Origin: a virus
Taxonomy: Duplodnaviria; Heunggongvirae; Uroviricota; Caudoviricetes
Direction: 5' to 3' (one strand)
Length of the DNA: 11,563 nt
IMG/VR virus record: IMGVR_UViG_2627853868_000010
In this document: piece after piece, positions 1 to 11,563 of the stretch
How positions within the stretch are numbered: position 1 is the first letter of the stretch
Layout: each line of letters opens with the position of its first letter
The notes under the pieces: model-generated
Database searches by the model: none
What the model was told of the DNA's origin: nothing
Seen by the model: the letters and a program-made list of their open reading frames with translations, nothing else
Program-made: the position numbers and the translations under genes

Positions 1-303
1 TTAACGCGTATTTTTCAGCGACTCCTGTGCAAAATACGCTGTTGCTTTTTTTAATATATCTCGCTCAAGGCGAGCTTCATTTAACGCCTTACGCAGTTGC
101 AGAATTTCAGATTCCAGTTCAGCCACCGTGCGGGAACCAGGAGTACCGAGCCCTTTTCTGGCGGCGGTAACCCATTGTCCTAAAGTGCCTTCAGGAAGGG
201 ATAATCGGGAAGCGCCTTCACTGATCGAAAGTTGATTTTCAAGAACCGTTCTGACAGCTTCGGCTTTGAACTCTTTAGAGTAACGTTGGTTTTTTCTGCT
301 CAT
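1..303 (-). CDS. IS3-family transposase OrfA (helix-turn-helix plus leucine-zipper region)
   Basis: 100-aa ORF MSRKNQRYSKEFKAEAV...ILKKATAYFA, identical to the OrfA at 3758-4060; the C-terminal ILKKATAYFA motif is typical of IS3-family OrfA. Confidence 0.85.
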   Translation of the reverse strand: MSRKNQRYSKEFKAEAVRTVLENQLSISEGASRLSLPEGTLGQWVTAARKGLGTPGSRTVAELESEILQLRKALNEARLERDILKKATAYFAQESLKNTR

Positions 304-367
304 TATTAGCTCCTTCTGATGCCATTCTATTTCAGGAAGGAGTGTCCGTTAAACTCAGGCTACCTCA
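1..367 (-). mobile_element. IS3-family insertion sequence (IS600-like), partial copy; the rest of the element lies left of the window
   Basis: Positions 1-367 mirror 3694-4060 in reverse complement: same terminus TGAGGTAGCCTGAGTTTAACGGACACTCC (element end at 367) and an identical 100-aa OrfA. The window starts exactly at the OrfA stop codon. Confidence 0.85.
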
Positions 368-642
368 CTCCCTGGCGGATTTTTGCAGCGAATACAGCAA
401 CACAACCGGACGGGCAACGGCTACGCGCTTCGCGTTCCGTCCAGGCGGTTACGTGGATGATTTGAGATTCTCCGGCACTCAGTGCCAGAAAACGCCACAC
501 AAAGGCCGTTTGTGTGTGTACAAGGTGTGGTATATGATTTACAGCAACCATAACGGCTCCTAGTTTACGTTGTTGGTTAGACGCCCCGTATGTGTTCCCA
601 GCACTGCGGGGCGTTGCTCTTTGTATTTCAACAATCCTTTCG

Positions 643-722
643 GTGTGTTTCATGTTATGAGCGCATGAAACACACGTCAAGGCTTTTTGTATTTCTTTTT
701 TTGTGTATACTGAAACACACCG
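643..722 (+). promoter_or_regulatory. Candidate promoter/operator of the RHH gene: 12-bp perfect inverted repeat plus a third half-site over a -10-like hexamer
   Basis: GTGTGTTTCATG (643-654) and CATGAAACACAC (664-675) form a perfect inverted repeat with a 9-bp spacer. TGAAACACAC recurs at 711-720, overlapping TATACT (706-711). AGGAG at 729-733 precedes the ATG at 742. The -35 is weak. Confidence 0.3.
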
Positions 723-741
723 ATGATTAGGAGTTTCAGAA

Positions 742-1047
742 ATGGCAACGGCTAACAAAAACGCAAAATCACAACTGACAACTGTCAGAGTCCCACTAGA
801 TGTTATGCAAGGGATGGAATCCGTTAAGCTGGACGGTGAAAGCAATGCCGGATTTATCGTAACCGCCATGCGCGGAGAAATGGCCCGCCGCCAAGCAGAA
901 GGCAGCGGAGAAAATCCCCTTGTGTCGTCACTGGATGCCCTGGCTAAGGTCGAACAAATCGGCATCAAAGCAGCCGAGGAGATCGGGCAACTCGTCACCG
1001 TCGCGCGTGAAGAACTCCAGCGACGCAAGGTCAAAGAGCATGAATAG
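742..1047 (+). CDS. Ribbon-helix-helix (Arc/MetJ/CopG-like) DNA-binding protein with a C-terminal extension; hypothetical
   Basis: 101-aa ORF with an AGGAG RBS 8 nt upstream. The N-terminal segment TTVRVPLDVMQGMESVKLDGESNAGFIVTAM fits the RHH beta-strand/helix/G-x-S-x-N turn/helix pattern (compare Arc EENGRSVNSEIYQRV). Assigned from motif pattern only. Confidence 0.55.
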   Translation: MATANKNAKSQLTTVRVPLDVMQGMESVKLDGESNAGFIVTAMRGEMARRQAEGSGENPLVSSLDALAKVEQIGIKAAEEIGQLVTVAREELQRRKVKEHE

Positions 1048-1104
1048 CCAATATCAGCGCCATAGTTTGAGGAACGCAGGCGCATTGCTTTACAGGACAG
1101 CACC

Positions 1105-1284
1105 ATGAGCGACACAGAATCAACCAAAACACCATCACCAACTCGTAAGAGACGACGCAAAAATATAGCGCATGAACATGAATCAGAAAGATTCGCACCT
1201 TGTTCGTTTGCTCTTGAGAAATTCCTTAAAGAGCACAGGAAAAAGCTCTCGTTGCAAACCTTGGAACGAACCAAATCTGACTGA
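1105..1284 (+). CDS. Small basic hypothetical protein (59 aa), probably co-transcribed with the RHH gene
   Basis: ATG at 1105 with AGGA about 6 nt upstream; translation MSDTESTKTPSPTRKRRRKNIAHEHESERFAPCSFALEKFLKEHRKKLSLQTLERTKSD; stop at 1282-1284. Too short for the supplied ORF track; a + strand terminator lies downstream. Confidence 0.3.
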   Translation: MSDTESTKTPSPTRKRRRKNIAHEHESERFAPCSFALEKFLKEHRKKLSLQTLERTKSD

Positions 1285-1350
1285 TCACATTGCCCACCAG
1301 CCGCAAATGTGGCATTGTTGGTGATGCTTTTGTTTTCCCTTGTTCCCACT

Positions 1351-1380
1351 GGCGACCCTTTTGCGGTCGCCTTTGTTTTG
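1351..1380 (+). terminator. Rho-independent terminator for the + strand two-gene operon
   Basis: GGCGACC-CTTTTGC-GGTCGCC hairpin followed by TTTGTTTTG. Confidence 0.5.
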
Positions 1381-1959
1381 TCACTGAATGCGGTTACCAA
1401 AGTAAAACTCAGGCTGATATTCACGTATCAGCGTTTTTTCTTCTTCCTCCTGCTCACGCTTTTTGCGCTTACATGCCTGTAGCTCCCTCCCCTTCTCGCT
1501 GGCACTTATTTGATATTGCTCTTTACGGCGGGAAAAATCCTGTAATGCACCCCACGGGATACCATAAGTCCCCGTTTTTCTGATACCTGGTATCACATTT
1601 CTGAATACCCAGTTACTGAAACGATGAGCAAATGTGCCAGGCGTCGTTGCTTTGCGGCTGCGGGCTATTAGTTTGTAGAAACCTGACTCAGAGATAATTC
1701 TCATATTCTGATTTCCTCCTGGGGTGTAAGTTAAATTTACTCCCTTTTCATCATCATCAAGCATCTGCAACGCCGTACGCGAATTGGTTAGTTCCAGCGC
1801 AGCACAAACATCTTTTGCAACAAACCACGGATCGCCGTTCAGATACACCACACGAACGTTCACACTATCAAAGCGCAGAACGACGAGATCACGAATATCG
1901 CAGAATTTTTTCACTGGACGAGCGTACCCCTTGCCCGTCACGGCAATATTTTTATTCAT
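1381..1959 (-). CDS. Bro-N domain protein (phage antirepressor-like)
   Basis: 192-aa ORF; the N-terminal region VVYLNGDPWFVAKDVCAALELTNSRTALQMLDDDEKGV...MRIISESGFYKLIARSRKA...FRNVIPGIRKTGTY matches the Bro-N signature (EPWFVAKDV, DEDEKG, ISESGLY, IRKTG); C-terminal part is charged. Confidence 0.75.
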   Translation of the reverse strand: MNKNIAVTGKGYARPVKKFCDIRDLVVLRFDSVNVRVVYLNGDPWFVAKDVCAALELTNSRTALQMLDDDEKGVNLTYTPGGNQNMRIISESGFYKLIARSRKATTPGTFAHRFSNWVFRNVIPGIRKTGTYGIPWGALQDFSRRKEQYQISASEKGRELQACKRKKREQEEEEKTLIREYQPEFYFGNRIQ

Positions 1960-1974
1960 CGCGTTTTTACCTTA

Positions 1975-2002
1975 TAGACAAAAAACCCCTCGTGATGAGG
2001 GG
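1975..2002 (-). terminator. Candidate intrinsic terminator between alpA and the Bro-N gene (minus strand)
   Basis: On the minus strand, hairpin CCCCTC-ATCAC-GAGGGG (plus 1986-2002) followed by TTTTTGTCTAT, lying between the alpA stop (2016) and the Bro-N start (1959). Confidence 0.45.
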
Positions 2003-2015
2003 CATTATTTACTGG

Positions 2016-2273
2016 TTATTGCTGTTTTGTTTTTCCAGGTTTCCATCCAGGATGCCACTCACCACGGATCCATGCCTGAACCTCTGAAAGTCGATACCCT
2101 GCAGCACGTTCACCGATCTTGATACGTCGCGGGAATTTACCTGCCTGCTCCATTTTCCAGCGTGTTGAGTTTGCCAGCGTGGTAAGTGCTATGCACTCTT
2201 TTTCACGAATGAACCGATCAATGTCCTTCATTGTGCGCAAATCGTTTTCATCAACAAGAGAATAAATTGCCAT
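2016..2273 (-). CDS. alpA: AlpA-family prophage transcriptional regulator (HTH, excisionase-like)
   Basis: 85-aa ORF; ALTTLANSTRWKMEQAGKFPRRIKIGERAAGYRLSEVQAWI matches the AlpA/Phage_AlpA pattern. Its ATG at 2273 is 1 nt from the integrase stop (TGA at 2275-2277). Confidence 0.8.
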   Translation of the reverse strand: MAIYSLVDENDLRTMKDIDRFIREKECIALTTLANSTRWKMEQAGKFPRRIKIGERAAGYRLSEVQAWIRGEWHPGWKPGKTKQQ

Positions 2274-2427
2274 ATCACACCACCTCTTTATTAAGCTCGA
2301 TAACGTTGTTGTTAAATCCTGCTATCGTATTAAGGTAATTAACCCACATATTAAGCACCTCAAGTTTTTTCTTTATATGCCTGCTTTTATTGTAAACACC
2401 AGCAACCCCTTTCACTTTATGACCTAA

Positions 2428-2436
2428 AAGAAGTTC
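2428..2436. repeat. 9-bp target-site duplication AAGAAGTTC of IS1 (left copy)
   Basis: Identical 9-mer at 2428-2436 and 3205-3213, directly flanking IS1. Confidence 0.9.
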
Positions 2437-2451
2437 GGTAATGACTCCAAC

Positions 2452-2955
2452 TTATTGATAGTGTTTTATGTTCAGATAATGCCCGATGACTTTGTCATGC
2501 AGCTCCACCGATTTTGAGAACGACAGCGACTTCCGTCCCAGCCGTGCCAGGTGCTGCCTCAGATTCAGGTTATGCCGCTCAATTCGCTGCGTATATCGCT
2601 TGCTGATTACGTGCAGCTTTCCCTTCAGGCGGGATTCATACAGTGGCCAGCCATCCGTCATCCATATCACCACGTCAAAGGGTGACAGCAAGCTCATAAG
2701 ACGCCCCAGCGTCGCCATAGTGCGTTCACCGAATACGTGCGCAACAACCGTCTTCCGGAGCCTGTCATACGCGTAAAACAGCCAGCGCTGGCGCGATTTA
2801 GCCCCGACGTATCCCCACTGTTCGTCCATTTCCGCGCAGACGATGACGTCACTGCCCGGCTGTATGCGCGAGGTTACCGACTGCGGCCTGAGTTTTTTAA
2901 GTGACGTAAAATCGTGTTGAGGCTAACGCCCATAATGCGTGCAGTTGCCCGGCAT
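2452..2955 (-). CDS. insB: IS1 InsB frame (made as the InsAB' fusion by -1 frameshift)
   Basis: The track ORF 2452-2829 encodes the canonical InsB C-terminal 125 aa ([16 protein letters not shown]...NIKHYQ). The frame extends upstream to about 2955. An in-frame TAG replaces the Trp codon of HYGRW, but this lies upstream of the frameshift site and need not inactivate InsAB'. Confidence 0.7.
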
Positions 2956-3149
2956 CCAACGCCATTCATGGCCATATCAATAATTTTCTGGTGCGTACCG
3001 GGTTGAGAAGCGGTGTAAGTGAACTGCAGTTGCCATGTTTTACGGCAGTGAGAGCAGAGATAGCGCTGATGTCCGGCAGTGCTTTTGCCGTTACGCACCA
3101 CCCCGTCAGTAGCTGAACAGGAGGGACAGCTGATAGAAACAGAAGCCAC
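2874..3149 (-). CDS. insA: IS1 InsA (transposition repressor / N-terminal part of InsAB' transposase)
   Basis: 91-aa [43 protein letters not shown]... (zinc-finger CPSC/CSHC); ends in the A6C frameshift window. Differs from the other copy at several residues (e.g. GVSLNT vs GVGLNT). Confidence 0.9.
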
Positions 3150-3204
3150 TGGAGCACCTCAAAAACACCATCATACACTAAATCAGTAAGTTGGCAGCAT
3201 CACC

Positions 3205-3213
3205 AAGAAGTTC
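3205..3213. repeat. 9-bp target-site duplication AAGAAGTTC of IS1 (right copy)
   Basis: Same 9-mer as 2428-2436. Confidence 0.9.
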
Positions 3214-3757
3214 GACAATATAAGGATCCGCCCCCATATCATTAAGCGTAGTGGAAAATGTGCGCCTGAAATCATGTATGCACCACAAGCCATTAGTATC
3301 ATGACCAAGACGCCTGCATATTCTGTTTGCAGCCCCTGTTATTGTCGCCCTTTGCAAAGCACAACCGACAACATAACCGCGATTTTTTGTTTCTGCGTAA
3401 AGATTAACGATCCATTGTTTTATTCCGTCAGGAACAGGCCTTACTATAGCCTCCTTGTTTTTGCTGTGCTCTTTTGGGACTGTCCATACCCAGTTTTTTA
3501 AATCCCATTCGTCCCAGGTGGATAGCCTCGCCTCCTGCTGTCGGCAACCAAACACCAGGCAGATAACCATTATTCTTCGGTTATATATTGATGACAGAGT
3601 TAGCAAATTATTACCGTAAGCATAAGACCATACATCAGCGGTTTCATTGATATTAAGAACGCGATCCCTTATACCGGATGAGCGCCCGACATATGAGGTA
3701 GCCTGAGTTTAACGGACACTCCTTCCTGAAATAGAATGGCATCAGAAGGAGCTAATA

Positions 3758-4060
3758 ATGAGCAGAAAAAACCAACGTTACTCTAAAGAGTTCAAAGCCG
3801 AAGCTGTCAGAACGGTTCTTGAAAATCAACTTTCGATCAGTGAAGGCGCTTCCCGATTATCCCTTCCTGAAGGCACTTTAGGACAATGGGTTACCGCCGC
3901 CAGAAAAGGGCTCGGTACTCCTGGTTCCCGCACGGTGGCTGAACTGGAATCTGAAATTCTGCAACTGCGTAAGGCGTTAAATGAAGCTCGCCTTGAGCGA
4001 GATATATTAAAAAAAGCAACAGCGTATTTTGCACAGGAGTCGCTGAAAAATACGCGTTAA
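3758..4060 (+). CDS. IS3-family transposase OrfA
   Basis: 100-aa ORF identical to the one at 1-303; AGGAG RBS upstream of the ATG. Confidence 0.9.
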   Translation: MSRKNQRYSKEFKAEAVRTVLENQLSISEGASRLSLPEGTLGQWVTAARKGLGTPGSRTVAELESEILQLRKALNEARLERDILKKATAYFAQESLKNTR

Positions 4061-4095
4061 TCGAACAATGGCGACAACAATTTCCCATTGAAGCG

Positions 4096-4914
4096 ATGTG
4101 TCAGGTATTTGGTGTATCCAGGAGCGGTTATTACAACTGGGTACAGCATGAACCCTCAGACAGAAAACAAAGTGATGAGCGGCTAAAACTGGAGATTAAG
4201 GTGGCACATATCCGCACTCGCGAAACATATGGAACCCGGCGGCTCCAGACGGAGCTGGCAGAGAATGGCATCATCGTTGGTCGTGACCGACTGGCACGTC
4301 TTCGTAAGGAGCTAAGGCTACGCTGTAAGCAGAAACGCAAGTTCAGAGCGACTACGAACCCGAACCACAATCTGCCAGTTGCGCCAAATCTGCTGAACCA
4401 GACGTTCGCTCCTACAGCACCAAATCAGGTCTGGGTGGCGGACCTGACGTATGTTGCCACACAGGAGGGATGGTTGTACCTCGCTGGCATCAAAGATGTT
4501 TATACGTGCGAAATTGTCGGCTACGCCATGGGAGAGCGCATGACAAAAGAGCTGACAGGTAAAGCCCTGTTTATGGCGCTCAGGAGCCAGCGCCCACCTG
4601 CCGGGCTAATCCACCACTCTGATCGAGGTTCACAGTACTGCGCATACGATTACCGGGTCATACAGGAGCAGTCTGGTCTGAAAACATCAATGTCGCGTAA
4701 AGGTCACTGTTACGACAACGCTCCGATGGAAAGCTTCTGGGGAACGCTGAAAAATGAGAGCCTGAGCCACTATCGTTTTAATAACCGGGATGAAGCCATC
4801 TCAGTAATACGGGAATACATTGAGATTTTCTACAATCGTCAGCGTCGTCACTCTCGTCTGGGGAATATCTCCCCGGCAGCCTTCAGGGAAAAATATCATC
4901 AGATGGCTGCTTAA
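4096..4914 (+). CDS. IS3-family transposase OrfB (DDE integrase-like catalytic domain; probably made as OrfAB by -1 frameshift)
   Basis: 272-aa ORF with DDE-type motifs (VWVADLTYV, HHSDRGSQY, CYDNAPMESFWGTLK); its frame begins just after the OrfA stop. Confidence 0.85.
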   Translation: MCQVFGVSRSGYYNWVQHEPSDRKQSDERLKLEIKVAHIRTRETYGTRRLQTELAENGIIVGRDRLARLRKELRLRCKQKRKFRATTNPNHNLPVAPNLLNQTFAPTAPNQVWVADLTYVATQEGWLYLAGIKDVYTCEIVGYAMGERMTKELTGKALFMALRSQRPPAGLIHHSDRGSQYCAYDYRVIQEQSGLKTSMSRKGHCYDNAPMESFWGTLKNESLSHYRFNNRDEAISVIREYIEIFYNRQRRHSRLGNISPAAFREKYHQMAA

Positions 4915-4938
4915 AAAAAGAACAAATGGTAGTGTCCG

Positions 4939-6327
4939 CTATTGCCAGTACACCTCACAGTACATTGACCAGGATTTCGAGCTGTTATTTTTCTCAATTC
5001 GCAGAGCTTTATTGCCGCTGTCATCAACCAGTGTGCGTCTGCCATACATACCGTCCCAGCCATAAGGTTTCAGCTGATTGTCTGTAGCTTTTTTGGCATC
5101 GTAAAAAATTACAGACTCTGAGGTGGTAACCGGCCTGTCTGGAACAACCACCCCGGCAGTACCATTAACAAACGCAGAAGACTTACCCGCGCAGCTCAGA
5201 ATCGCCGTTGCCAGACGGTCGGAAATAATCCCACGGCGAGCCCATGAACTGAAATGGCTCGCCCTGTCCTGTGACGTCCAGGTGGCTGAGCTGTCACGCC
5301 ATTTCGAACCGTAATAACCGATACCCGGAATGTCCGGGTCTTCTTCCGGTTTGTTCGTCGGCACATTCACCCCGTTCTCATCGGTCATGAACGGTACGAA
5401 ATGGATATTCTTTTCCGTTTTATTTTTATAGCTGCCGTACACCGTCTGGTACGTGGATTCGTTCTTCTGCTTCCAGAAATACGTCGTGTCCCCGCATATC
5501 CAGGGAACACCGCCAGCAGAGCCACCGACGCACTGGCCTGCCATATCCGCCAGGTCTGCACGGAATTTATCAACCAGCGCACCAAACTGTGCGGCATGAT
5601 TTGCCGGCGTACCGCCAAAATCAAATTCCCCCTGCATCCACACCACGGCAAACAGCACATTTTTCGGGTTCTTCTCCAGTGCCGCTTTTGTTCGACCGAT
5701 AAGGTCCTTATACAGCGGCTTGTCCACACCCCAGCGGGTTGAATTCTCCGAGGCACCACTCGCGTCACTGTATGTGCCATCAGCTCCGGTGGTGAACGCT
5801 GAACCACCACGACAGCATGGAACCAGCAGAATGCCCGCATTCGCCGGTATAAACGGCAGCAGTTTTTTGGCGATATGCAGCCCCTGCCCCACGGTTCCGT
5901 ACTGCCCCTTTGACAGGTCCGCTTTCGGATGGTTAAGACGGCTCATGTCCTGCACATCATGCAGACAATGGTCCGCCGGAATGATGTCGTTATATTTGCA
6001 TGCTGCACCGCCCGGTGTCACCGTACTGCGACGCGCCAGTTGCTTAATACGCGGGTCCGGACGGTCATATGTCCCCGGCAGCGGAAGGCCTTCACCATAC
6101 GACATGCCGTTTGACTGCCCTGCCAGAACCACAACAAAGTAATACTCCGGGTCGCTGGTGGCGCTGATTACTGCACCTTCTGCTGCAATCGCCTGCATCA
6201 GAGTATAAGGGGTTATGGCCACCGGACTACCAAACGGCTGCCAGCCCTCTTTCAGTTTATGTGTCAGCTTTTCCGCAAGATCTGACGGCGACGCCGCCCT
6301 GACAACATCATAGTGTTTAAAAGCCAT
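4939..6327 (-). CDS. nanS: Prophage sialate O-acetylesterase (NanS-p-like; DUF1737 N-domain plus SGNH/DUF303 esterase domain), 3'-truncated by IS600
   Basis: 462-aa ORF with GGAGG RBS. Motifs VLAGQSNGMSYGEGLPLP, RIKQLARRSTVTPGG, YGTVGQ, LLPFIP, VPCCRGGSAFT, SHFSSWARRGIISDR match NanS/YjhS-type esterases as I recall them. The last 6 codons (CEVYWQ) and the stop are read from the IS600 end (4939-4957). Confidence 0.8.
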   Translation of the reverse strand: MAFKHYDVVRAASPSDLAEKLTHKLKEGWQPFGSPVAITPYTLMQAIAAEGAVISATSDPEYYFVVVLAGQSNGMSYGEGLPLPGTYDRPDPRIKQLARRSTVTPGGAACKYNDIIPADHCLHDVQDMSRLNHPKADLSKGQYGTVGQGLHIAKKLLPFIPANAGILLVPCCRGGSAFTTGADGTYSDASGASENSTRWGVDKPLYKDLIGRTKAALEKNPKNVLFAVVWMQGEFDFGGTPANHAAQFGALVDKFRADLADMAGQCVGGSAGGVPWICGDTTYFWKQKNESTYQTVYGSYKNKTEKNIHFVPFMTDENGVNVPTNKPEEDPDIPGIGYYGSKWRDSSATWTSQDRASHFSSWARRGIISDRLATAILSCAGKSSAFVNGTAGVVVPDRPVTTSESVIFYDAKKATDNQLKPYGWDGMYGRRTLVDDSGNKALRIEKNNSSKSWSMYCEVYWQ

Positions 6328-6549: not shown

Positions 6550-6776
6550 GCCCACAAGAAAGCCCCTCCGGAGAGGGGCTGGAGAGTGGCGCTATGTGCC
6601 ATTGCATGGTGCCGGGTGCCTCCCGGTGAATTCAGTACCAGCACCTGAATCCGCGATTATCCCATATACCTACTCGCTGATTGCCCCTCCGCACAGGGGG
6701 ATTCACCATGCCAGTTTCTTTTAACAAACTCCCCGCAAACCAGACAACAGTCAACCGTCTGAATTGTGAGACATTT

Positions 6777-6816: not shown

Positions 6817-6893
6817 TGGCGCGTTGTACTGGATTCGAACCAGTGACCGATTGCTTAGAAGGCAATTGCTCTGTCCGGCTGAGCTAACAACGC
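6817..6893 (-). tRNA. argO: tRNA-Arg (anticodon UCU), prophage-encoded
   Basis: Minus-strand 77-nt cloverleaf GCGTTGT-TA-GCTC-AGCCGGACA-GAGC-A-ATTGC-CTTCTAA-GCAAT-CGGTC-ACTGG-TTCGAAT-CCAGT-ACAACGC-G-CCA. Perfect 7-bp acceptor stem, encoded CCA. Gene symbol assigned by position in the cluster. Confidence 0.85.
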
Positions 6894-6906
6894 ATGATGC
6901 AGATAA

Positions 6907-6983
6907 TGGACCGCCATCGGGGACTTGAACCCCGCGCAGCCAGCTTCGAAGGCTGGCGCTCTTTCCTGATGAGCTAATGGCGG
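6907..6983 (-). tRNA. argN: tRNA-Arg (anticodon UCG), prophage-encoded
   Basis: Minus-strand 77-nt cloverleaf CCGCCAT-TA-GCTC-ATCAGGAAA-GAGC-G-CCAGC-CTTCGAA-GCTGG-CTGCG-CGGGG-TTCAAGT-CCCCG-ATGGCGG-T-CCA. Gene symbol assigned by position in the cluster. Confidence 0.8.
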
Positions 6984-6990
6984 TATGTGA

Positions 6991-7066
6991 TGGTGGCCCT
7001 TGCTGGATTTGAACCAGCGACCTGGCGATTATGAGTCGCTCGCTCTCACCACTGAGCTAAAGGGCC
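6991..7066 (-). tRNA. ileZ: tRNA-Ile2 (anticodon CAU, ileX-like; reads AUA after lysidine modification), prophage-encoded
   Basis: Minus-strand 76-nt sequence GGCCCTTTAGCTCAGTGGTGAGAGCGAGCGACTCATAATCGCCAGGTCGCTGGTTCAAATCCAGCAAGGGCCACCA, near-identical to E. coli ileX as I recall it; anticodon loop CTCATAA. Confidence 0.85.
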
Positions 7067-7106: not shown

Positions 7107-8124
7107 TCATCCGTTCTGGCTGACTAAATCCTGTACTTCCCGAACCGTCTGCTCAAAACGTTCAGTCTCCAGCTCAACGCCAATTGCACGACGCCCGAGC
7201 GCCAGTGCCGCTTTCACTGTCGAACCCGACCCCATGAAAAAATCTGCAATCAGGTCACCCGGACGACTGCTAGCGCTGATTATCTGCTGCAGCATTTCTG
7301 CCGGTTTTTCGCACGGATGTTTCCCGGGATAGAACTGCACCGGTTTATGCGTCCACACATCGGTATACGGCACCTGCACCGTCACGCCAAAATACCGCCG
7401 CAGATGTTTATATTCACTCAGCAGCTCCGCATACTGCCGGTTCAGTGAGGTATACGTATCCACCAGCTGGTGGTGGAGCTTTTCCAGTTCACCACGCCGA
7501 TGCTTCTCTTCTGCCACCCGGGCAAACAGCGCCTGTAATTTCAGATAATCGCTTTCATTCGGCAACTGCCACTGACTGGCACTGAACCAGTGCGACACCA
7601 TGTTTTTCTTTCCTGTGGCATCTGCAATCTGTTTTGCCGTTATCCCCAGGGCAGCTCGCGCATCACGAAAGTAAGAAATCAGCGGGGCCATCACATGCTG
7701 TTTCAGTGCACTGCCCTTCGCCGCATACCCGGCATCTTTCGGACGATACGGCCCCTGATAATGTTCCGCGAACAGAATGCGCTCTGTGGCGGGGAAATAC
7801 GCCCGCAGGCTTTCCTTGTTGCATCCGTTCCAGCGTCCGGACGGCTTCGCCCAGATAATATGGTTCAGCACACTGAAGCGTTCACGCATCATGATTTCGA
7901 TATCAGATGCCAGGCGATGACCACAGAACAGGTAAAGACTTCCGGCAGGTTTCAGCACCCGCCAGAACTGCGCCAGACACTGGTCCAGCCACTTCAGGTA
8001 ATCATCGTCGCCCTTCCACTGGTTATCCCAGCCCTCAGGCTTCACTTTAAAGTACGGCGGGTCCGTGACTATCAGGTCAACAGAATTTTCGGGTAACGAC
8101 CAGATAAATTCCAGGCAGTCGGCG
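7107..8124 (-). CDS. DNA N6-adenine/N4-cytosine methyltransferase (beta-class; DPPY precedes FxGxG), prophage Dam-like orphan MTase; native 5' end removed by IS1
   Basis: Native coding sequence starts at the IS1 junction with ADCLEFIWSLPENSVDLIVTDPPYF (motif IV) and ends with DLIADFFMGSGST...GRRAIGVELE (motif I). No native start codon remains; the frame stays open upstream through IS1/IS2 sequence to 8282. Confidence 0.8.
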
Positions 8125-8142
8125 GGTAATGACTCCAACTTA

Positions 8143-8147
8143 CTGAT
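8143..8147. repeat. 5-bp target-site duplication CTGAT of IS2 (left copy; right copy at 9479-9483)
   Basis: CTGAT immediately flanks both IS2 ends; both copies lie within IS1 terminal sequence. Confidence 0.85.
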
Positions 8148-8238
8148 TAGACTGGCCCCCTGAATCTCCAGACAACCAGTATCACTTAAATAAGTGATAG
8201 TCTTAATACTAGTTTTTAGACTAGTCATTGGAGTACAG

Positions 8239-8604
8239 ATGATTGATGTCTTAGGGCCGGAGAAACGCAGACGGCGTACCACACAGGAAAAGATCGCAAT
8301 TGTTCAGCAGAGCTTTGAACCGGGGATGACGGTCTCCCTCGTTGCCCGGCAACATGGTGTAGCAGCCAGCCAGTTATTTCTCTGGCGTAAGCAATACCAG
8401 GAAGGAAGTCTTACTGCTGTGGCCGCCGGAGAACAGGTTGTTCCTGCCTCTGAACTTGCTGCCGCCATGAAGCAGATTAAAGAACTCCAGCGCCTGCTCG
8501 GCAAGAAAACGATGGAAAATGAACTCCTCAAAGAAGCCGTTGAATATGGACGGGCAAAAAAGTGGATAGCGCACGCGCCCTTATTGCCCGGGGATGGGGA
8601 GTAA
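8239..8604 (+). CDS. insC: IS2 transposase OrfA (InsC)
   Basis: [56 protein letters not shown]... matches IS2 InsC as recalled; ATG at 8239. Confidence 0.9.
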
Positions 8605-9467
8605 GCTTAGTCAGCCGTTGTCTCCGGGTGTCGCGTGCGCAGTTGCACGTCATTCTCAGACGAACCGATGACTGGATGGATGGCCGCCGCAGTCGTCACA
8701 CTGATGATACGGATGTGCTTCTCCGTATACACCATGTTATCGGAGAGCTGCCCACGTATGGTTATCGTCGGGTATGGGCGCTGCTTCGCAGACAGGCAGA
8801 ACTTGATGGTATGCCTGCGATCAATGCCAAACGTGTTTACCGGATCATGCGCCAGAATGCGCTGTTGCTTGAGCGAAAACCTGCTGTACCGCCATCGAAA
8901 CGGGCACATACAGGCAGAGTGGCCGTGAAAGAAAGCAATCAGCGATGGTGCTCTGACGGGTTCGAGTTCTGCTGTGATAACGGAGAGAGACTGCGTGTCA
9001 CGTTCGCGCTGGACTGCTGTGATCGTGAGGCACTGCACTGGGCGGTGACTACCGGCGGCTTCAACAGTGAAACAGTACAGGACGTCATGCTGGGAGCGGT
9101 GGAACGCCGCTTCGGCAACGATCTTCCGTCGTCTCCAGTGGAGTGGCTGACGGATAATGGTTCATGCTACCGGGCTAATGAAACACGCCAGTTCGCCCGG
9201 ATGTTGGGACTTGAACCGAAGAACACGGCGGTGCGGAGTCCGGAGAGTAACGGAATAGCAGAGAGCTTCGTGAAAACGATAAAGCGTGACTACATCAGTA
9301 TCATGCCCAAACCAGACGGGTTAACGGCAGCAAAGAACCTTGCAGAGGCGTTCGAGCATTATAACGAATGGCATCCGCATAGTGCGCTGGGTTATCGCTC
9401 GCCACGGGAATATCTGCGGCAGCGGGCTTGTAATGGGTTAAGTGATAACAGATGTCTGGAAATATAG
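8562..9467 (+). CDS. insD: IS2 transposase OrfB (InsD; DDE catalytic domain)
   Basis: 301-aa [33 protein letters not shown]...WLTDNGSCY...[12 protein letters not shown], matching IS2 InsD as recalled; overlaps insC in the -1 frame. Confidence 0.9.
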
Positions 9468-10228: not shown

Positions 10229-10476
10229 CGCTCGACGAGTGGAAACCAAAACGGTTCAGTCTCCCAATAACAAACACTACCCTGGTGAAATACGGAAAAC
10301 TAGGATACATCGTTCCAAGACCACAAAAAATTCGTGGGCGTTGGCTGATAGATCGCCGAGCAGTATTTGTTGGGCCTGGTGAAACGGGAATTGCGCCGGA
10401 AATTCATACTGGCGATGATGATGCACTGAAGGAGATTTTAACTCATGTCACCGAGGCCACAAAAAAACAGCACTGA
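10229..10476 (+). CDS. xis: Lambda-type excisionase (Xis)-like, 5'-truncated at the IS1 junction
   Basis: Native sequence from 10229 reads (P)LDEWKPKRFSLPITNTTLVKYGKLGYIVPRPQKIRGRWLIDRRAVFV..., which aligns with lambda Xis (MYLTLQEWNARQRRPRSLETVRRWVRECRIFPPPVKDGREYLF) as recalled. About 4 N-terminal codons and the start are missing. The 3' end overlaps the int start as in lambda. Confidence 0.55.
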
Positions 10477-11563
10477 CGTAGCCGGTCTTTACGAAAAGTT
10501 TGATCGCAGAACTGGCAGAGTTTACTACCAGTATAAAAATCCTGTGACTGGAAAATTTCACGGACTCGGAACAGACAAAGGTAAGGCAGAAAAAATCGCT
10601 TCCACAGCCAATCAGCGAATAGCTGCAGCAGAAGCTGAATATTTCATGCGCAAAATTGATGAAAGTCCGTCAGCAACAAAACGTCGGGGTATCAGATTAA
10701 AGGCATGGGTTGATCGATATCTGAAAATACAGGACACGCGACTGAAAAATGGAGATATTGCAGCTACAACTCACAAAGAAAAAACTCGAATGGCTGCATA
10801 CCTAGTTTCCCGTCTGGGAAACCACCCATTGAAAGAACTGGAAGTAAGAGACTTTGCATTAATACTGGATGAGTGGCTGGATAAAGACATGGTCAGCACA
10901 GCGAGAGTAAATCGTGGATTATGGGTTGATATTTATAAAGAAGCACAGCATGCAGGGGAAGTTCCTCCTGGATGGAATCCTCCGGAGGCTACCCGTAAAC
11001 CGATCCCTAAAGTAACCAGAGCCAGGCTCACCATGGAAGACTGGCAAAAAATTTACAATGCAACGCCTGAAAAACACTTTATCCGTAACGCAATGCTTCT
11101 TGCGATTGTTACTGGTCAGCGCCGTGATGACATTTGCCACATGCGTTTTTCAGATGTGTGGAACGAACACTTGCATATCACCCAGGGAAAAACCGGAATG
11201 CGTCTGGCGTTACCGCTTACACTACGCTGTGATGCCATTGGGATAACGTTAAAAGAAGTTATTGATGGGTGCCGAGACAGAATATTAAGTCCATATCTAA
11301 TCCATAGTCGGCACCAGAAACAACCGAAGCCGATGAGTAAAGACAACCTGAGCGACTACTTTGCCAAAGCACGGGATCTGGCTGGGATAATTCCACCAGC
11401 AGGAAAAACTCCGCCAACATTTCATGAACAACGCTCTCTATCAGAACGGCTGTACCGTGCACAGGGTATCGATACAAAAACATTACTAGGACATAAAGTC
11501 CAGGCAACCACCGATCGCTATAACGATACTCGAGGTCAGGAATGGGTTAAGCTGGTTATTTGA
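10445..11563 (+). CDS. int: Lambda-family tyrosine integrase (site-specific recombinase), complete
   Basis: 372-aa ORF with AGGAG RBS. N-terminal YYQYKNPVTGKFHGLGTDK, central LAIVTGQRRDDICHMRFSDV, and C-terminal PPTFHEQRSLSERLY...LLGHKVQATTDRYNDTRGQEWVKLVI match lambda/HK022 Int (R, H-x-x-R, LLGH, catalytic Y) as recalled. The window ends at its stop codon. Confidence 0.9.
   Translation: MSPRPQKNSTDVAGLYEKFDRRTGRVYYQYKNPVTGKFHGLGTDKGKAEKIASTANQRIAAAEAEYFMRKIDESPSATKRRGIRLKAWVDRYLKIQDTRLKNGDIAATTHKEKTRMAAYLVSRLGNHPLKELEVRDFALILDEWLDKDMVSTARVNRGLWVDIYKEAQHAGEVPPGWNPPEATRKPIPKVTRARLTMEDWQKIYNATPEKHFIRNAMLLAIVTGQRRDDICHMRFSDVWNEHLHITQGKTGMRLALPLTLRCDAIGITLKEVIDGCRDRILSPYLIHSRHQKQPKPMSKDNLSDYFAKARDLAGIIPPAGKTPPTFHEQRSLSERLYRAQGIDTKTLLGHKVQATTDRYNDTRGQEWVKLVI

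Follow-up and report, generated by a model that had tools for sequence, protein, structure and literature searches.

The window analysed here is a stretch of 11,563 nucleotides (nt) from a virus of the Caudoviricetes (IMG/VR record IMGVR_UViG_2627853868_000010), and our subject is a terminator-like hairpin that stands between two of its minus-strand genes, alpA and a Bro-N gene, in what reads as the decayed remnant of a phage satellite. The Bro-N gene (1381..1959, minus strand; 192 residues) belongs to a family annotated as antirepressors (PF02498, 4.2e-20) and matches phrog_2593 ('anti-repressor', 2e-84) over residues 1-190, a span that supports its ATG at 1959-1957. Upstream of it lies alpA (2016..2273, minus strand; 85 residues), which Pfam (PF05930), PHROG (phrog_2790) and a structure model assign to an excisionase-like winged-helix regulator. 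On the same strand alpA is still joined to the last 53 codons and the stop codon of an integrase gene (2275..2436, from sequence reading), and this short piece holds the alpA ribosome-binding site.

Between the alpA stop codon (TAA, 2018-2016) and the Bro-N start, the minus strand carries an intrinsic-terminator-like hairpin followed by U6GU (1978..2003), which was supported by a terminator scan, folding, simulation and conservation. The hairpin starts 13 bases beyond the stop codon and reads GCCCCTC-ATCAC-GAGGGGT (2003-1985), with six Watson-Crick pairs (2002-1997 with 1991-1986; the scan counted seven pairs, five of them G-C, and a loop of 5) and with U6 directly after the stem (1985-1980), then G and U. 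From the last U to the Bro-N ATG there are just 20 nt, which include the Bro-N ribosome-binding site AAGGT (1969..1973, minus strand, from sequence reading). A G+C-rich stem, a short loop and a U-tract directly downstream are the marks of an intrinsic (Rho-independent) terminator, and all three are present here; an earlier, sequence-only reading of the window had placed a GC hairpin plus T-run at 1975-2002 on this strand, between alpA and Bro-N, within a few bases of where we found it. Folded as an individual sequence, the hairpin has a predicted stability of -12.7 kcal/mol, and the 76-nt region around it folds at -16.1 kcal/mol (z = -2.4). Under a strict definition of a terminator (6 Watson-Crick pairs, at least 5 of them G-C, a loop of 3-8 and then T6), it was the sole site on either strand of 368-3693, and about 2 Mb of Markov-simulated sequence contained none. 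A looser scan found 16 terminator-like sites in 1-4200, compared to 4.4 ± 2.0 in shuffled sequences, and ranked the hairpin first on the minus strand. Being the only strict site in the remnant, with none in the simulated sequence, the hairpin is not a chance feature.

The block that contains these features (1290-2450) is 99.9% identical to a block in 61 complete Escherichia coli genomes, and had no match in the INPHARED phage collection. We therefore turned to relatives of this block, comprising E. coli loci and 66 IMG/VR loci retrieved with a pattern for the U-tract and the ribosome-binding site, with stem pairs read from per-sequence folds, since loops of unequal length threw the left arms out of register in a MAFFT alignment; the alpA survey described below added more variants. 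All Bro-linked copies retain a G+C stem of 6-9 pairs directly before U6, with a predicted stability of about -9 to -16 kcal/mol across variants. The stem occurs as CCCCUC/GAGGGG, the type found in the window, or as CCCCGC/GCGGGG, found in all other types, so that pair 5 changes on both sides from U-A to G-C, a compensatory replacement. Pair 7 is G.U, A-U or unpaired depending on the variant, one variant (L117) has a C.A mismatch in the stem, and the loops vary in both sequence and length (5-8 nt). Pairing is thus kept in relatives despite sequence change, among few independent variants. The Bro-N ribosome-binding site is kept as RAGGT across all hairpin-plus-Bro variants, though the search pattern demanded such a site.

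The same module, consisting of the hairpin, U6, the ribosome-binding site and a coding sequence that opens with ATGAATAAAAAT, was found behind at least four very different AlpA or excisionase-like types, with 8-17 nt between the alpA stop and the stem. The hairpin thus travels with Bro-N rather than with alpA. A survey of 80 IMG/VR alpA loci points in the same direction. Three arrangements follow alpA in these loci: co-oriented cargo without a terminator, a hairpin with convergent cargo, or a terminator with Bro-N. Co-oriented cargo of the first kind (TIR-domain, DUF2971-like and other genes) begins 1-58 nt after alpA, and among the co-oriented cargo genes a terminator precedes Bro-N only. Distant Bro-N genes (50-61% identity) found by a genome-wide search in Providencia, Erwinia, Serratia, Yersinia and others had no upstream terminator and abut the preceding gene, so that the hairpin is confined to the E. 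coli-type module and does not belong to Bro-N genes in general. The conserved terminator before the Bro-N cargo is a small, previously undescribed detail of a known kind of element, the helper-embedded phage-inducible chromosomal island (HE-PICI). As a separate observation, the slot after alpA in sister satellites (loci L157, L162, L163, L167, L170, L173, L177, L179, L182, L005 2081-2956) holds TIR-domain, DUF2971-like and several 270-300-residue proteins, a cargo that looks defence-type and co-transcribed with alpA.

Because the ribosome-binding site already takes up part of the 20 nt that separate the U-tract from the ATG, there is no room for a promoter in the spacer, and a Bro-N transcript must traverse the hairpin. 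A crude scan for sigma-70-like sites (at least 9 of 12 positions) found none on the minus strand from the end of the IS1 element at 2437 to Bro-N, and none within alpA or the adjoining 3' part of the integrase gene in an intact relative, the element L001 of E. coli CFSAN018748. Upstream of the hairpin, no conserved sequence was found travelling with Bro-N. A -10-like TATAAG in the spacer was weighed as a promoter for Bro-N alone and discarded on three grounds: its overlap with the ribosome-binding site, the nearly leaderless mRNA that it would yield and its lack of conservation (variants have TATGTG or TATATG). Masking of the hairpin by a ribosome halted at the alpA stop is likewise unlikely, given a spacer that varies between 8 and 17 nt. 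Taken together, the hairpin is very probably a real, selected terminator that gates Bro-N, and we infer that it terminates transcription in vivo. If the gene product is an antirepressor, as its annotation alone would have it, tight silencing would be sensible. The earlier suggestion that Bro-N is gated by termination and read-through is thus sound as anatomy, with a conserved hairpin and no room for a promoter; its choice of AlpA as the agent, made by homology, did not stand (see below).

We next considered the upstream boundary of this arrangement. The integrase frame, read on the minus strand, closes with AAA GAG GTG GTG TGA, the TGA being at 2277-2275, and a single base (T, 2274) lies between it and the alpA ATG (2273-2271), exactly the spacing that the sequence-only reading had noted. 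Since alpA has its own ribosome-binding site, GAGGTG (2286-2281), 7 nt before the ATG, it can start translation alone, and coupling to the integrase is not obligatory even in intact copies. In 80/80 surveyed loci (63-100% protein identity) alpA lies directly downstream of the integrase, and the junction is always TGAnATG or TAAnATG with a ribosome-binding site before it; in two other integrase/AlpA types the genes stand 6 and 13 nt apart. That Int and AlpA are co-transcribed and co-expressed in near-stoichiometric amounts thus appears to be a conserved part of the design, with strict coupling not required. As for the proposed translational coupling, what stands is the tight junction, conserved in intact relatives; in the window itself coupling cannot operate, because IS600 has removed codons 1-200 of the integrase and IS1 splits what is left at a point 162 nt ahead of the stop. 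In this copy the integrase is a pseudogene, and its junction with alpA is a fossil.

The intact relatives show where such elements reside. HE-PICIs have been divided into integration (Int and AlpA), Bro, replication and late zones, and helper late transcription has been proposed, with terminators left out of account, to run on into the embedded satellite (Tommasini, Mageeney & Williams 2023, PMC10111431). The element studied here is of this known kind. In L001 the order is integrase (1242 nt), alpA, Bro-N, a YlcI/YnfO gene in the opposite direction, an Icd-like gene and primase, followed by a single-stranded DNA-binding protein, major capsid, head decoration, small terminase and portal genes, and the element (near 4.026-4.037 Mb of NZ_CP028192) lies inside the portal gene of a lambdoid prophage and points the same way. 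E. coli EC93 also has an intact copy embedded in a portal gene. E. coli loci with other integrase/AlpA alleles lie inside large-terminase or major-capsid genes, again co-oriented. Using tblastn with annotated late-gene fragments to locate helper sequence, we found that 48/48 hairpin-plus-Bro loci with enough flank (some of them the same contig fetched twice) follow, at a distance of 142-164 nt, the co-oriented 5' fragment of a late gene of a prophage, which was the portal gene in 35 and the large terminase gene in 13. Among complete E. coli genomes, 64 contain the portal-attL-int junction and 61 the alpA-hairpin-bro block.

Lambdoid late operons are transcribed by a Q-modified, terminator-resistant polymerase, and this gives the arrangement a possible meaning. 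In intact copies, integrase and alpA would form one tightly joined transcription unit in which a recombinase and an excisionase-like regulator are made together. The hairpin and U-tract would close this unit and insulate the antirepressor-like Bro-N from ordinary transcription, such that Bro-N would be made only when polymerase reads through the terminator. The agent of read-through would be not AlpA but terminator-resistant late transcription of the helper, carried out by Q-modified polymerase, which would enter the satellite because the satellite sits co-oriented inside a helper late gene. Ordinary polymerase would then give Int and AlpA and no Bro-N, and helper late transcription would give all three. 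As a combined statement, a real gating terminator overridden by helper Q is the best explanation at hand, and we give it an even chance of being right. Taken singly, the step that names helper Q as the read-through agent is one that we infer tentatively; the further idea that the terminator acts as a filter telling unmodified from Q-modified polymerase, so that Bro-N would be wired in cis to the late antitermination switch of the helper, is possible but rather doubtful. If true, the proposal would supply a concrete mechanism for the suggested cis-regulation of helper-embedded satellites, and the Bro-specific terminator offers a testable handle on how one satellite gene might be silenced until helper late, terminator-resistant transcription.

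Several points weigh against this proposal. Termination at the level of RNA is a prediction, and the covariation behind it is thin, being a two-sided change at one stem pair among closely related variants. The pattern used to collect the IMG/VR loci required both the U-tract and the ribosome-binding site, and the IMG/VR sample is weighted towards prophage contigs. Phages HK106 and HK446 induce the capsid-forming PICI EcCIEDL933 in trans, with alpA required, which means that cis read-in from the helper cannot be the sole induction route for such satellites; moreover, a satellite that has excised loses its supply from the helper late promoter. Finally, a simple leaky terminator explains the anatomy equally well and is a serious rival. 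Under that explanation, a constitutive partial terminator would end most int-alpA transcripts and a fixed small leak would set a low level of Bro-N, with no regulated antitermination. The moderate, not extreme, strength of the hairpin (a six-pair stem at -12.7 kcal/mol, with a U6 tract interrupted by G) is consistent with it, as are the distance of 8-17 nt from alpA stop to stem, like that of ordinary operon-internal terminators, and the inducibility in trans of satellites of this kind. Yet it leaves unexplained why only Bro-N has a terminator while other co-oriented cargo abuts alpA, and it ignores the location of every sampled copy in a late operon, with its terminator-resistant polymerase. 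On balance we hold a fixed leak to be unlikely, although well worth keeping in view beside read-through by helper Q.

Far less probable is that the inverted repeat serves mainly as an element of RNA stability or processing, protecting the 3' end of int-alpA RNA or capping a processed bro 5' end, or as a protein-bound DNA palindrome. Conservation of the G+C arms would fit such roles, and genes of the Bro network have known RNA-level control sites in satellite P4 (PMC10111431). But U6 abuts the stem in every variant, though the search pattern required the U-tract, a loop of 5-8 nt suits an RNA hairpin better than a protein site of fixed spacing, and 300-2500 contained no match to P4 CI/C4, IsrK or any other Rfam family. 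A P4-type RNA control of termination is likewise not supported: Rfam searches, run at the gathering threshold over the whole window and at E ≤ 5 over 300-2500, found no CI/C4 or IsrK-type immunity RNA.

The remaining candidate is AlpA itself. The sequence-only reading had invoked a Pseudomonas aeruginosa AlpA homologue as the precedent for antitermination, and this precedent fell away when the two proteins were compared, indirectly, by a search across the Protein Data Bank (PDB) and against the published description. The AlpA of the window matches PF05930 over the full profile (positions 1-51 of 51; 52.2 bits where the cut-off is 21; E = 5.4e-14) and phrog_2790 ('excisionase and transcriptional regulator', 1.9e-15). 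Its structure model has a predicted local distance difference test score of 73.6, with 79-89 for the core (residues 20-70), and shows three core helices and a small sheet. Top Foldseek matches were the GIsul2 excisionase 8c3t (root-mean-square deviation 1.0 Å over 52 columns), RdfS, TorI, Pukovnik Xis, BldC and MerR-type domains, with E-values that are all weak (≥1.3e-3), as expected for such a small domain. A phmmer search of all PDB chains at E ≤ 10 returned 8c3t and three chance-level matches, and P. aeruginosa AlpA (chains 7XYA and 7XYB) was not among them; neither Q21 nor 7XYA/7XYB chains appeared in the best 50 of 252 Foldseek matches (E ≤ 10). The P. aeruginosa protein has eight helices, a 21Q-like fold and an N-terminal ring in the RNA exit channel (PMC9371919; PDB 7XYA, 7XYB), and its C-terminal helix-turn-helix includes residues 128-142, which contact DNA (PMC9371919). 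It binds within the -35/-10 interval of its target promoters (PMC7969949, PMC9371919), and at high levels bypasses unrelated terminators (PMC7969949). With no relationship of sequence or fold detected, and with different size and architecture, the two proteins share a name and not an ancestry. The lesson for annotation is that 'AlpA' denotes both a family of excisionase-like proteins in E. coli satellites, PF05930, and an antiterminator of the Q-like kind in P. aeruginosa, and that function should not be transferred by name.

The AlpA of E. coli PICIs is an activator that the helper induces and that both excision and induction require (PMC6092414, PMC11773190, bioRxiv 10.1101/2022.09.08.507074), and the literature searched held no link between a PICI AlpA and an intrinsic terminator. 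The model in which AlpA acts as a processive antiterminator of the Pseudomonas kind, bypassing the hairpin to switch on Bro-N, can draw on the terminator directly after alpA, on the bypass of unrelated terminators by Pseudomonas AlpA at high levels and on reporters placed after alpA or on ORF3 that are AlpA-dependent in an E. coli PICI (PMC6092414), but we regard it as the least likely of the explanations, and as improbable in itself: an 85-residue predicted excisionase/MerR winged helix has no N-terminal ring, the crude scan saw no promoter-like site with an embedded binding element before the hairpin, and hairpin and Bro stand behind at least four dissimilar AlpA types with no sign of a specific partnership between AlpA and hairpin.

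The copy in the window is itself a ruin. The segment 368-3693 (minus strand) reads as the decayed remnant of an HE-PICI, identified by its near-identity to intact elements, by the intact relative L001 and by the zone scheme of PMC10111431, and keeps only the Bro zone and part of the integration zone, whereas all four zones are present in the nearly identical L001. Leaving IS1 aside, the segment is 99.9% identical to intact elements (query 65-3394), and alpA, hairpin and Bro-N are 100% identical to intact copies. Satellite homology begins at about 364-368, next to a partial IS600 copy (1..367, minus strand; orfA 1-303) whose terminal repeat reaches position 367 (351-367, minus strand, has the end sequence TGAGGTAGCCTGAGTTT) and which cuts away the replication and late zones, both gone from the window. 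On the other side a second IS600, inverted relative to the first (3694..4957, plus strand; orfB 4096-4914), truncates the 5' half of the integrase; its right end, which we take to lie near 4957, is an estimate from orfB and the presumed length of IS600. It replaces the attL side from 3694 on, so that the original insertion site is no longer readable. Within the integrase sits a 768-bp IS1 (2437..3204, minus strand) flanked by a 9-bp target duplication, AAGAAGTTC, at 2428-2436 and 3205-3213, with transposase genes in the same direction as alpA. Beyond it lies a middle fragment of the integrase (3205..3693, minus strand), assigned by PF00589 (E = 1.3e-11) and by identity to the L001 gene; with IS1 and one copy of the duplication removed, the integrase pieces equal nt 601-1242 of the intact 1242-nt gene, 642/642 identical to L001. 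No function is to be expected from the locus in the window, a dead relic between insertion sequences.

The two inverted IS600 copies (1-367 and 3694-c.4957) bracket the satellite remnant, which suggests that an IS600-mediated inversion or deletion took away the 5' half of the integrase at one end of it and the replication and late zones at the opposite end. The IS600 junctions of the window were absent from the complete E. coli genomes of our collection, in which the best place ends at window positions 364 and 3693. IS1 also lies within or next to the same integrase region in E. coli PK13 (NZ_CP074028) and E41 (NZ_CP069707), and decay of this satellite by insertion sequences may be recurrent.

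Other features of the satellite lie beyond the Bro-N gene. A YlcI/YnfO-family gene (742..1047, plus strand; phrog_6522, 6e-64; an identical gene is annotated in L001) is convergent with Bro-N and belongs to a rightward unit of the satellite, which a second terminator-like hairpin closes just past the Bro-N 3' end (1351..1371, plus strand; seven pairs, six G-C, tail TTTGTTTTGT). Divergent from the YlcI gene, a promoter-like TTGACG-17-TAACAT at 652-680 on the minus strand faces the lost Icd-like/primase operon; it is plausibly the control region of the satellite replication operon and is a candidate AlpA target. In L001, GTGTATTGCAA occurs three times, with two copies side by side, in a segment absent from the window (11228-11330, minus strand) that lies between the start of the integrase and the portal gene that the element interrupts. 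These repeats are probably the doubled attP-arm motif of Tommasini et al. and are candidate binding sites of Int or AlpA.

The rest of the window is of mixed origin. A 462-residue protein with DUF1737 and sialate O-acetylesterase (SASA) domains (4939-6327, minus strand) resembles prophage NanS-p-type esterases; its gene may be truncated, with a 3' end that abuts or overlaps the IS600 end. A match to the STnc100 small RNA family (139 bits, E = 2e-31) lies beside three tRNA genes, Arg-tct, Arg-tcg and one with a CAT anticodon (6550-6740 and 6817-7066, minus strand), a layout that we take to resemble the region from Q to the lysis genes in prophages of the lambdoid or Stx type. Between these tRNA genes (6817-7066 region) and the next gene there is no toxin gene. 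Further on are a DNA methylase gene (N6_N4_Mtase) that overlaps, at its 5' end, with an IS2-like element (7107-8282, minus strand; 8194-9467, plus strand), a second IS1-like copy (c.9400-10200, minus strand) and a lambda-type integrase that carries an Arm-DNA-binding domain and extends to the edge of the window (10445-11563, plus strand). Taken as a whole, the window is a patchwork of insertion sequences and pieces of prophage.

Set against known systems, the locus is closest to the HE-PICIs of Enterobacteriaceae (PMC10111431), with the same zone order and 99.9-100% identity to intact, portal-embedded, co-oriented copies. The window copy differs in being a fragment, its integrase truncated by IS600 and split by IS1, its replication and late zones missing. 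The same paper contains no word beginning 'antiterminat', and both of its uses of 'terminator' concern P4. The PICIs EcCICFT073 and EcCIMP1 likewise have a PF05930 protein just downstream of the integrase that is required for induction and excision (PMC6092414, PMC11773190); their AlpA, the master activator of Gram-negative PICIs, has been studied via its own promoter region, whereas alpA in the window follows one base after the int stop without an intergenic promoter.

Satellite P4 resembles the window in placing an AlpA homologue, Vis, directly upstream of a termination-controlled gene of the Bro network, eta (PMC10111431). In P4, termination works through pairing of CI RNA with seqA inside eta, which is translationally coupled to vis (PMC10111431), in contrast to a hairpin that lies in an untranslated spacer with no C4/IsrK-like RNA detected. 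The P. aeruginosa AlpA system shares with the window the name and, in both, a regulator gene followed by a terminator before the first gene possibly under control; there, however, a promoter with an AlpA-binding element precedes the terminator, and the crude sigma-70 scan saw none in the window. The proposed likeness is to phage lambda Q and tR', in which none but a polymerase modified at the late promoter ignores an intrinsic terminator, with the satellite sitting inside that very operon. The satellite terminator would differ from tR' in lying far from the site of Q loading and in serving as a filter for one satellite gene.

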